A DNA stretch of 33,080 nt, from IMG/VR virus record IMGVR_UViG_2896601577_000002. One strand, written 5' to 3'. The stretch is from a virus (lineage: Duplodnaviria; Heunggongvirae; Uroviricota; Caudoviricetes). Position 1 is the first letter of the stretch; each line of letters starts with the position of its first letter. A model generated the notes under the pieces. The model made no database searches. It saw nothing but the letters and a program-made list of their open reading frames with translations, and had not been told where the DNA came from. This document shows positions 18,965 to 19,103 of this stretch, one piece after another. Made by a program: the position numbers and the translations under genes.

Positions 18965-19103
18965 TTTGTGGTAAATGGGCGGCTGGTGGGTGTTAGGGGC
19001 ACCCACCAGCCATCTGCTCATGCGTTGGGTTCACAAGCAAACCTCAGGCCCACTGCTTTGCGCAAAAGCAGAATGAGCCTATCAGAGACAGGCTTAATGA
19101 TCC

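Follow-up and report, generated by a model that had tools for sequence, protein, structure and literature searches.

The question raised by this locus is what role, if any, is played by a perfect inverted repeat lying upstream of a phage DNA methyltransferase gene. The DNA analyzed, here called the window, is the whole stretch of 33,080 nucleotides. Within it, positions 18981-18992 read GGCTGGTGGGTG, 18993-18999 read TTAGGGG and 19000-19011 read CACCCACCAGCC, which is exactly the 12-bp perfect stem with a 7-nt loop that the original prediction had described from the letters of the sequence. Nine of the 12 bp are G-C and the predicted RNA folding energy of the hairpin alone is -26.5 kcal/mol. 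No other perfect hairpin with a stem of 12 bp or more (loop 3-10) occurs in the window; the chance expectation is 0.017 per window (mean of 60 dinucleotide-preserving shuffles), and the surrounding 181-nt region folds with a z of -3.8 relative to shuffles. Lowering the limit to 10 bp adds a single further perfect hairpin, at 10504-10528 (10-11 bp, loop 3-5). The 12-mer of the arm has two sites in the whole window, both within the hairpin, and a reading as a repetitive palindrome (REP/BIME, transposon or IS end) failed on this single copy and on a position fixed to one gene.

The window represents the late-regulatory region of a lambdoid prophage, in which the following features were placed:

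DUF968/NinG-like gene, the first of these late-region genes, with an in-frame stop (GQG*MGTK) at 17161-17163
17338-17712, RusA gene
17709-18529, Q antiterminator gene (Pfam Antiterm)
18612-18627, tR'
18756-18953, + strand, 65-aa winged-helix-like ORF (weak TrmB match, 18 bits against a cutoff of 25.6)
18940-18963, + strand, intrinsic terminator t2 (stem-loop 18940-18957 followed by a T6 run, from a terminator scan)
19104-20153, + strand, N6_N4_Mtase gene (Pfam N6_N4_Mtase, E = 7.9e-45)
20203-20451, three tRNAs (ARAGORN: Met(CAT), Arg(TCG), Arg(TCT))
20527-20716, after the tRNA trio, match to the STnc100 sRNA (127 bits)

The hairpin thus falls between a terminator (t2, 20 nt upstream) and the methyltransferase ATG at 19104, which agrees with its original placement. 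The Q gene is frameshifted after ...CCHGK (near 18078) and is read as ORFs 17709-18209 and 18056-18529, as against one protein of 273 aa in locus L004 (E. coli 203740). The methyltransferase gene is a pseudogene with an in-frame TGA at 19416-19418 (W105*); the intact copy in L004 encodes 349 aa with Trp at residue 105. With three of its late-region genes broken (Q, DUF968/NinG-like and methyltransferase), the prophage of the window is decaying. The homolog of the first tRNA of the trio is named tRNA-Ile by RefSeq. Further from the hairpin, two identical matches to the ALIL pseudoknot, a frameshift signal of the IS3 family, occur 5.5 kb apart (22673-22789 and 28188-28304, 120.2 bits each) and indicate two copies of one insertion sequence downstream of the late region, while adjoining + strand matches to isrK (62 bits) and C4 antisense RNA (75 bits) at 11254-11439 look like an immunity or antirepressor-control RNA module.

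A G+C-rich stem-loop is what is expected of an intrinsic terminator, and this hairpin, a perfect stem directly downstream of a gene, resembles one in that respect, all the more as its Xenorhabdus homologs are followed by UUUU. It differs from one in having no U-tract. No T-run is present 3' of the hairpin, where the + strand reads ATCTGCTCAT and the - strand GCCCATTTACC, and the hairpin was not among the calls of the terminator scan for either strand, the + strand tail being AUCUGCUCAU, without a U run. The U-tract is likewise absent from the Enterobacteriaceae and Providencia-group forms. The earlier statement that this is not a classical terminator was correct for both strands.

Enzymes of the M.EcoGII type are an anti-restriction weapon of temperate phages, those carrying Shiga toxin included, and are in wide laboratory use as reagents. 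Q antitermination is the known restraint that phages place on them. Judged from its sequence, the methyltransferase of the window is a member of the M.EcoGI/GII family of N6-adenine DNA methyltransferases. M.EcoGII itself is a protein of 349 aa with a close homolog in phage 1720a-02 (PMC5778455). This phage was found to carry the same leader-methyltransferase region as the window. The enzyme methylates adenine in any sequence context, also accepts single-stranded DNA and RNA as substrates, binding and methylating the latter; constitutive expression of it is deleterious, and in the lysogen it is silent (PMC5778455). No recognizable Shine-Dalgarno sequence precedes the methyltransferase start in the window (CUUACUGAUCUAUG). 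Positions -7 to -4 (G, A, U and C) and the AUG show little or no variation, and GATC at these four positions is a Dam site.

To follow the region beyond the window, a 581-bp query running from the end of Q to the methyltransferase start was searched against 5426 complete E. coli genomes; 2479 of them gave a match, 1756 with a query coverage of at least 80%. Methyltransferase homologs (61-100% protein identity) were also taken from one genome per species. Approximately 140 nt upstream of the methyltransferase gene were found to be kept in Escherichia, Kosakonia, Mixta, Trabulsiella, Enterobacter, Klebsiella, Citrobacter, Salmonella, Buttiauxella, Rosenbergiella, Providencia, Morganella and others, more than 10 genera in total. 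Conservation in related phages had been proposed as a check of the hairpin, and lack of it as part of what would refute the reading; the element is kept from Escherichia to Providencia, so that refutation on this ground clearly fails. Isolated phages bearing this leader are SfV, mEp460, cdtI, phiP27, 1720a-02, Citrobacter phiNP, Klebsiella Kp4866-6, Providencia PSTRCR_117lys and Hafnia yong2, and it also occurs in Stx2 phages, in some of which it lies immediately upstream of the tRNA-stx region. The order Q, tR', small ORF, leader, methyltransferase was checked in the annotations of SfV and Providencia PSTRCR_117lys, and the site of the leader in prophages and phages is the head of the Q-dependent late operon. 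Immediately before the leader and methyltransferase, the small ORF (orf47 of phage SfV, with the conserved RCQLILTQLxMAGL) is retained across the range from E. coli to Xenorhabdus, but some loci lack it, and there the leader directly follows a terminator. An equivalent of t2, a hairpin with a U-rich tail, precedes the leader in other genera.

Between genera the leader is 71-85% identical to that of the window, as against 66-78% for the methyltransferase coding sequence, and the coding sequence equaled or exceeded the leader in one of 10 comparisons. A scan of IMG/VR with the 3' half of the leader returned 120 loci, and in every one of the 117 that were testable the methyltransferase gene was directly downstream. 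The leader is absent at two methyltransferase loci (L028 and L041). In Photorhabdus and Xenorhabdus a shorter form occurs in which only the P1 hairpin (as the 12-bp hairpin and its extension are named below) and its flanks are kept. This short form (L053-L086, approximately 60-100 nt upstream of the methyltransferase) consists of GGUGAA, AUGGGC, the hairpin homolog and UUCACC; UUUU often follows the hairpin, giving it a terminator-like appearance, and unrelated terminators take the same position in some Xenorhabdus loci.

From the comparison of these sequences, the leader of approximately 140 nt comprises five helices, of which the hairpin is P1, a point that was absent from the original prediction. 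The predicted parts of the leader, all on the + strand, are as follows:

18967-19106, whole structured leader (approximately 140 nt, through the methyltransferase start codon; covariance model R1)
18967-18971, 5' tail UGUGG (UGUGA in most genera), in nearly invariant columns
18975-18980, AUGGGC, which forms either the 5' strand of P0 (with GCCCA 19048-19052) or P1a (with GCUCAU 19016-19021)
18981-18992, left arm of P1b, almost unchanged in Escherichia- and Enterobacter-type leaders
18993-18999, P1b loop UUAGGGG, with the initial UU conserved and the rest variable
19000-19011, right arm of P1b, with 97% of cells paired
19013-19041, P2 hairpin (UCUGCU 19013-19018 with AGCAAA 19036-19041; apical loop 19019-19035)
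19048-19052, 3' strand of P0, GCCCA
19053-19059 with 19065-19071, P3 hairpin (CUGCUUU/AAAGCAG), within 19047-19079
19047-19049 with 19077-19079, alternative extension of P3 (GGC/GCC)
19075-19095, P4 hairpin (GAGCCU/AGGCUU), its basal four pairs GAGC/GCUU conserved with G.U wobbles
19099-19106, translation initiation region GAUCCAUG, complementary to the P2 loop

Model R1 matches the window at 18962-19112 with 143 bits and, its E-values being rough, E = 1e-32, and this is its only hit in the window. The helices were first proposed by eye and were then tested on a structure-blind MAFFT alignment. Model R1 was used to realign 56 and then 99 sequences, with pairing statistics calculated on 98 distinct ones, and both realignments were fitted by the model to one of two alternative structures, Fold B. 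This fold comprises P0 (UGGGC/GCCCA), P1b, P2 (UUCGCU/AGCGAA), P3 (UGCUUU/AAAGCA) and P4 (GAGC../..GCUU), arranged as a P0/P1/P2 three-way junction followed by P3 and P4. Across the 98 sequences 92.2% of its cells are paired, compared to 33-45% when the partners are slid, and 11 pairs have changed on both sides, a number reached by none of 500 shuffles, a control that overstates significance because the sequences are related. In the MAFFT alignment the per-pair counts of P0, P2 and outer P1b are similar, with inner P1b misaligned in 13 Escherichia-type sequences. A first RNAalifold consensus on the plain MAFFT alignment was poor owing to misalignment of bulged and unbulged right arms, which was mended by the covariance-model realignment; RNAalifold then finds P0 and P1b unaided, albeit on an alignment fitted to the model.

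Among the individual helices, P1b is 97.0% paired in the 98 sequences with both-side changes at five of its 12 pairs. Its left arm carries compensated substitutions in the Providencia group, where the arms GACUGUAAAGGUG/CACCCUUACAGUC replace GGCUGGUGGGUG/CACCCACCAGCC. In most genera the 3' arm is interrupted by a 1-nt bulge, the perfect 12 bp being the Escherichia version. P0 is 100% paired and has one compensatory change (UGAGC/GCUCA in L016). In P2, column pair 56-82 is C-G in 46 sequences, A-U in 30, U-A in eight and U-G in seven. P3 is 92% paired, and its extension shows compensatory changes from G-C to A-U in two sequences and from C-G to U-A in three. Mismatch cells of the A.C type number 33 in P2 and 22 in P3, which marks these as weaker helices. 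The apical part of P4 is variable, with a different set of pairs restored in each of E. coli, L048, L047 and Providencia; an alternative pairing for P4 (AUCAG/CUGAU) was rejected, having many mismatches and no compensatory support. Cells with G.U outnumber those with A.C by 40 to 8 in P1b and by 66 to 5 in P4, an excess which argues that the RNA is read from the + strand, that of the gene. Pairing of G with U on this strand would also account for the drift of the right arm of P1b by transitions while the G/U-rich left arm is nearly invariant.

The second structure, Fold A, consists of P1a (AUGGGC/GCUCAU), an extended P3 (GGC..CAC/GUG..GCC) and a helix between the P2 loop and the start region of the gene. 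Folds A and B are mutually exclusive, since P1a takes up the 5' strands of both P0 and P2, and the P3 extension takes up the 3' strand of P0 and the 5' strand of P4; P1 and P3 are common to both. With the P1a flanks added (AUGGGC...GCUCAU), P1b becomes a bulged helix of approximately 20 bp (-33.3 kcal/mol), the bulge being of 4 nt in E. coli; P1a is 99% paired and shows one-sided changes only. Fold A as a whole is 96.0% paired with nine pairs changed on both sides (none of 500 shuffles), as measured on the alignment fitted to Fold B, and it is the minimum-energy fold of the window sequence, with the P2-loop/start-region pairing included.

Two conserved blocks in the P2 loop, with the sequences CAU and RGRUC, can pair with the eight contiguous nucleotides GAUCYAUG, which include the start codon; counted separately, 96.2% of these cells are paired, compared to 16-36% with a slid partner. 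The bases barely vary; one pair has changed on both sides, and is unpaired in 26 of the 98 sequences. The match is thus better described as conserved complementarity than as covariation, and sequence conservation alone could explain it. An extension of the helix by column pair 71-149 was rejected, being unpaired in 26/98 and no better than chance. The P2 loop (19027-19035; GGAUCAC or GGUCACA in relatives) also resembles the 3' end of 16S rRNA (GGAUCACCUCCUUA), and UGAUC directly before the AUG (19098-19103) is complementary to it, which suggests an anti-Shine-Dalgarno mimic. The 5' tail UGUGG (18967-18971) is a candidate partner for another part of the loop, UCACA at 19031-19035, and in the Xenorhabdus short forms GGUGAA and UUCACC flank P1.

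Taken together, the element upstream of the methyltransferase gene is very likely to be a conserved, structured RNA acting in cis. Complementarity to the start region in a gene with no Shine-Dalgarno sequence makes control of translation initiation in cis its most likely function. The leader would be transcribed from the + strand within the Q-dependent late transcript, with P1 serving as a stable nucleating arm shared by both folds. Fold A would occlude the start region by pairing the P2 loop with GAUCYAUG, so that the enzyme would be kept off or low unless the leader RNA was remodeled; the leader may possibly affect mRNA stability too. That the leader in fact gates initiation of methyltransferase translation is a step to which we would give slightly less than an even chance.

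Of the alternatives, the one that survives best is that P1a and P1b form an RNase III-type cleavage site, or a protective hairpin, separating or stabilizing the small-ORF and methyltransferase segments of the transcript. RNase III typically acts on duplex RNA of about two turns, in many cases interrupted by an internal loop, and the bulged helix of approximately 20 bp and -33.3 kcal/mol, with P1a paired at 99% across genera, would suit such a role, as would its position between two cistrons directly after a terminator. Nevertheless, processing leaves unexplained the four other helices, the conserved loops, the complementarity to the start codon and the strict link to one gene family, and we consider it improbable. 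The original prediction had offered RNA processing or regulation as the role of the hairpin; the regulatory part is upheld by conservation, compensatory changes and + strand G.U wobbles, whereas the processing part is not favored.

A little less probable again is attenuation through a leader peptide, in which the position of a ribosome on a short ORF would select the fold. Such an ORF (MGGWWV...) begins at AUG 18975, with tandem Trp codons in the left arm of P1, and spans the 5' strands of P0 and P1; all 98 long-form leaders have this AUG, with a conserved GUGA/GUGG ahead of it, and in L011 the upstream ORF ends at a UGA overlapping the methyltransferase AUG. The peptide itself, however, is not conserved. 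The ORF has seven codons in the largest group (23/56) and up to approximately 45 in the rest, with outliers of three and 13 codons and one unclosed; Providencia reads MGDCKG..., its Trp codons having been lost to compensatory substitutions in P1; and the AUG is absent from several Xenorhabdus forms and is base-paired in both folds. A conserved leader peptide with regulatory codons, of the trp or erm type, was therefore not found. Reading the region as coding sequence was rejected, as neither the 60-aa + strand ORF at 18929-19111 nor the MGGWWV ORF is conserved and the indels are not multiples of 3; no - strand ORF of at least 40 aa overlaps the leader.

The hairpin could also act as DNA, and its position in relation to gene exchange is relevant here. 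In three prophages without the methyltransferase and tRNAs (L001-L003), the match to the window breaks off at 18992/18993, directly after the left arm, and resumes near 20484, the methyltransferase and three-tRNA cassette being replaced by approximately 90 bp. These segments (L001:2870-2960, L002:2868-2960, L003:2860-2950) complete an ORF of 15-24 aa annotated as DUF3927, and the left arm, identical in sequence, survives there without its partner; the left arm may have originated in this DUF3927 mini-ORF. A third cassette is found in phage phiSTEC1575-Stx2k and E. coli N5D43 (L007:2854-2990 and L008:2853-2990), in which the methyltransferase and the 3' part of the leader have given way to an HTH-domain gene that has a TATAAT-type promoter of its own, and the right arm is the decayed CACCTGTCAGTC, with four G.U pairs on the + strand. 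From these junctions, the conserved 5' portion of the leader also marks a boundary at which late-region cassettes recombine.

Such junctions, in or beside the hairpin for three alternative cassettes, together with the perfect 12-bp inverted repeat and the adjoining small HTH-like ORF, would fit a DNA-level palindrome, either an operator for a dimeric protein (the winged-helix ORF, for example) or a recombination site at the cassette boundary. Against this, the left arm hardly varies, whereas the right has changed by transitions that preserve G.U pairing (40 against 8), the 1-nt bulge in one arm of most genera would break the symmetry of an operator, some loci keep the leader without the small ORF, and the other four helices go unexplained, so that this reading is very improbable. 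Least probable of all is that the hairpin is a decayed terminator or chance palindrome at a mosaic junction with no present function, for although the Xenorhabdus hairpin with its UUUU is terminator-like, unrelated terminators occur there in some loci and a cassette junction falls within the hairpin loop, this is disfavored, for the Enterobacteriaceae at least, by compensatory changes at five pairs with 97% pairing across genera, by a leader conserved beyond the coding sequence and by the 0.017 hairpins per window expected by chance.

Two further candidates were rejected. The prophage sRNAs AgvB and AsxR lie downstream of the moron and are convergent, and PasA, PasC, PasD and STnc100 lie near esterase/holin genes, none of them at the leader locus. 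The conserved UGUGAAAAU could be taken for an extended -10 promoter, and this was rejected since many genera have GGAAAT without the -11 A and the spacing to ATGGGC is variable; a promoter scan gave no site.

Rfam 15 (4227 models, among them riboswitch classes, put-type RNAs, STnc100, AgvB and AsxR) gave no match at gathering thresholds to 18960-19110, the best by E-value being P26 with 24 bits against a threshold of 36, on the bare hairpin only. With four divergent loci there was no overlap with the leader other than a match of a microRNA model (24 bits, gathering 87), on both strands, to the bare hairpin of the Providencia locus, and no family came close by E-value for the E. coli, Salmonella, Providencia, Photorhabdus or Xenorhabdus versions. 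Text searches of the literature found no published description of a leader for these methyltransferase genes, which is not proof of absence. The leader is therefore apparently an undescribed cis-regulatory structured mRNA leader.

The closest parallels among known systems are in organization. In the com-mom operon of phage Mu, a stem that inhibits translation is relieved by the small zinc-finger protein Com. Both loci are late and encode an anti-restriction adenine-modifying enzyme, toxic if expressed early, with a small ORF immediately upstream, and in both a folded RNA (in the case of the leader, as proposed here) occludes the start region of the modification gene. There is, however, no sequence relationship, and the leader, having five helices and two folds, is much the larger structure. 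The small ORF differs from Com in being winged-helix-like and in being dispensable in some loci; a Pfam scan of the 65-aa product (E <= 0.01) detected no homology to Com, the weak TrmB winged-helix match being the only one.

The leaders of erm genes, which encode rRNA adenine methylases, work by translational attenuation, and ErmC autoregulates by binding its own mRNA. They share with the present leader alternative hairpins that hide the start of an adenine methyltransferase gene and a short upstream ORF overlapping the first hairpin. They differ in that the peptide here is unconserved in length and sequence, the target of the methyltransferase is DNA, there is no antibiotic logic and no homology was seen. 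Autoregulation of M.EcoGII through its binding or methylation of RNA (PMC5778455) is conceivable by analogy.

Two-state leaders of the riboswitch type, the SAM and SAH classes among them, offer a third comparison, having in common with the leader a multi-helix junction, conserved loop and junction nucleotides, two exclusive folds, a start that can be sequestered and a SAM-using gene. Neither the pair of exclusive folds nor the start-codon complementarity is peculiar to riboswitches, and the leader differs from them in scoring below the gathering threshold of every Rfam 15 family.

Our overall reading, that the P1-bearing leader is dedicated to genes of the M.EcoGI/GII type and controls their translation initiation in cis, is one we hold to be reasonably likely. 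As far as the aligned sequences go, the structure is conserved, covarying, on the + strand and exclusive to the methyltransferase gene; translational gating, and any trigger of fold switching, are inferences. The agent that would remodel the leader could be a ligand, a ribosome translating the upstream ORF, the adjacent small protein or the methyltransferase. A stronger version, in which the leader would be a two-state riboregulator of a new class, flipped between Fold A and Fold B by a signal in trans (SAM/SAH, the small winged-helix protein, or the methyltransferase through m6A autoregulation), is unlikely in our estimate. If it were true, an indiscriminate adenine methyltransferase would be licensed only during productive lytic growth. 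With approximately 100 distinct sequences, five helices and two alternative folds, the leader is a well-supported candidate for a new family of cis-regulatory RNA, which could enter RNA family databases. Being specific to M.EcoGII-type genes, it would represent a concrete and testable point of control for enzymes that harm the host.
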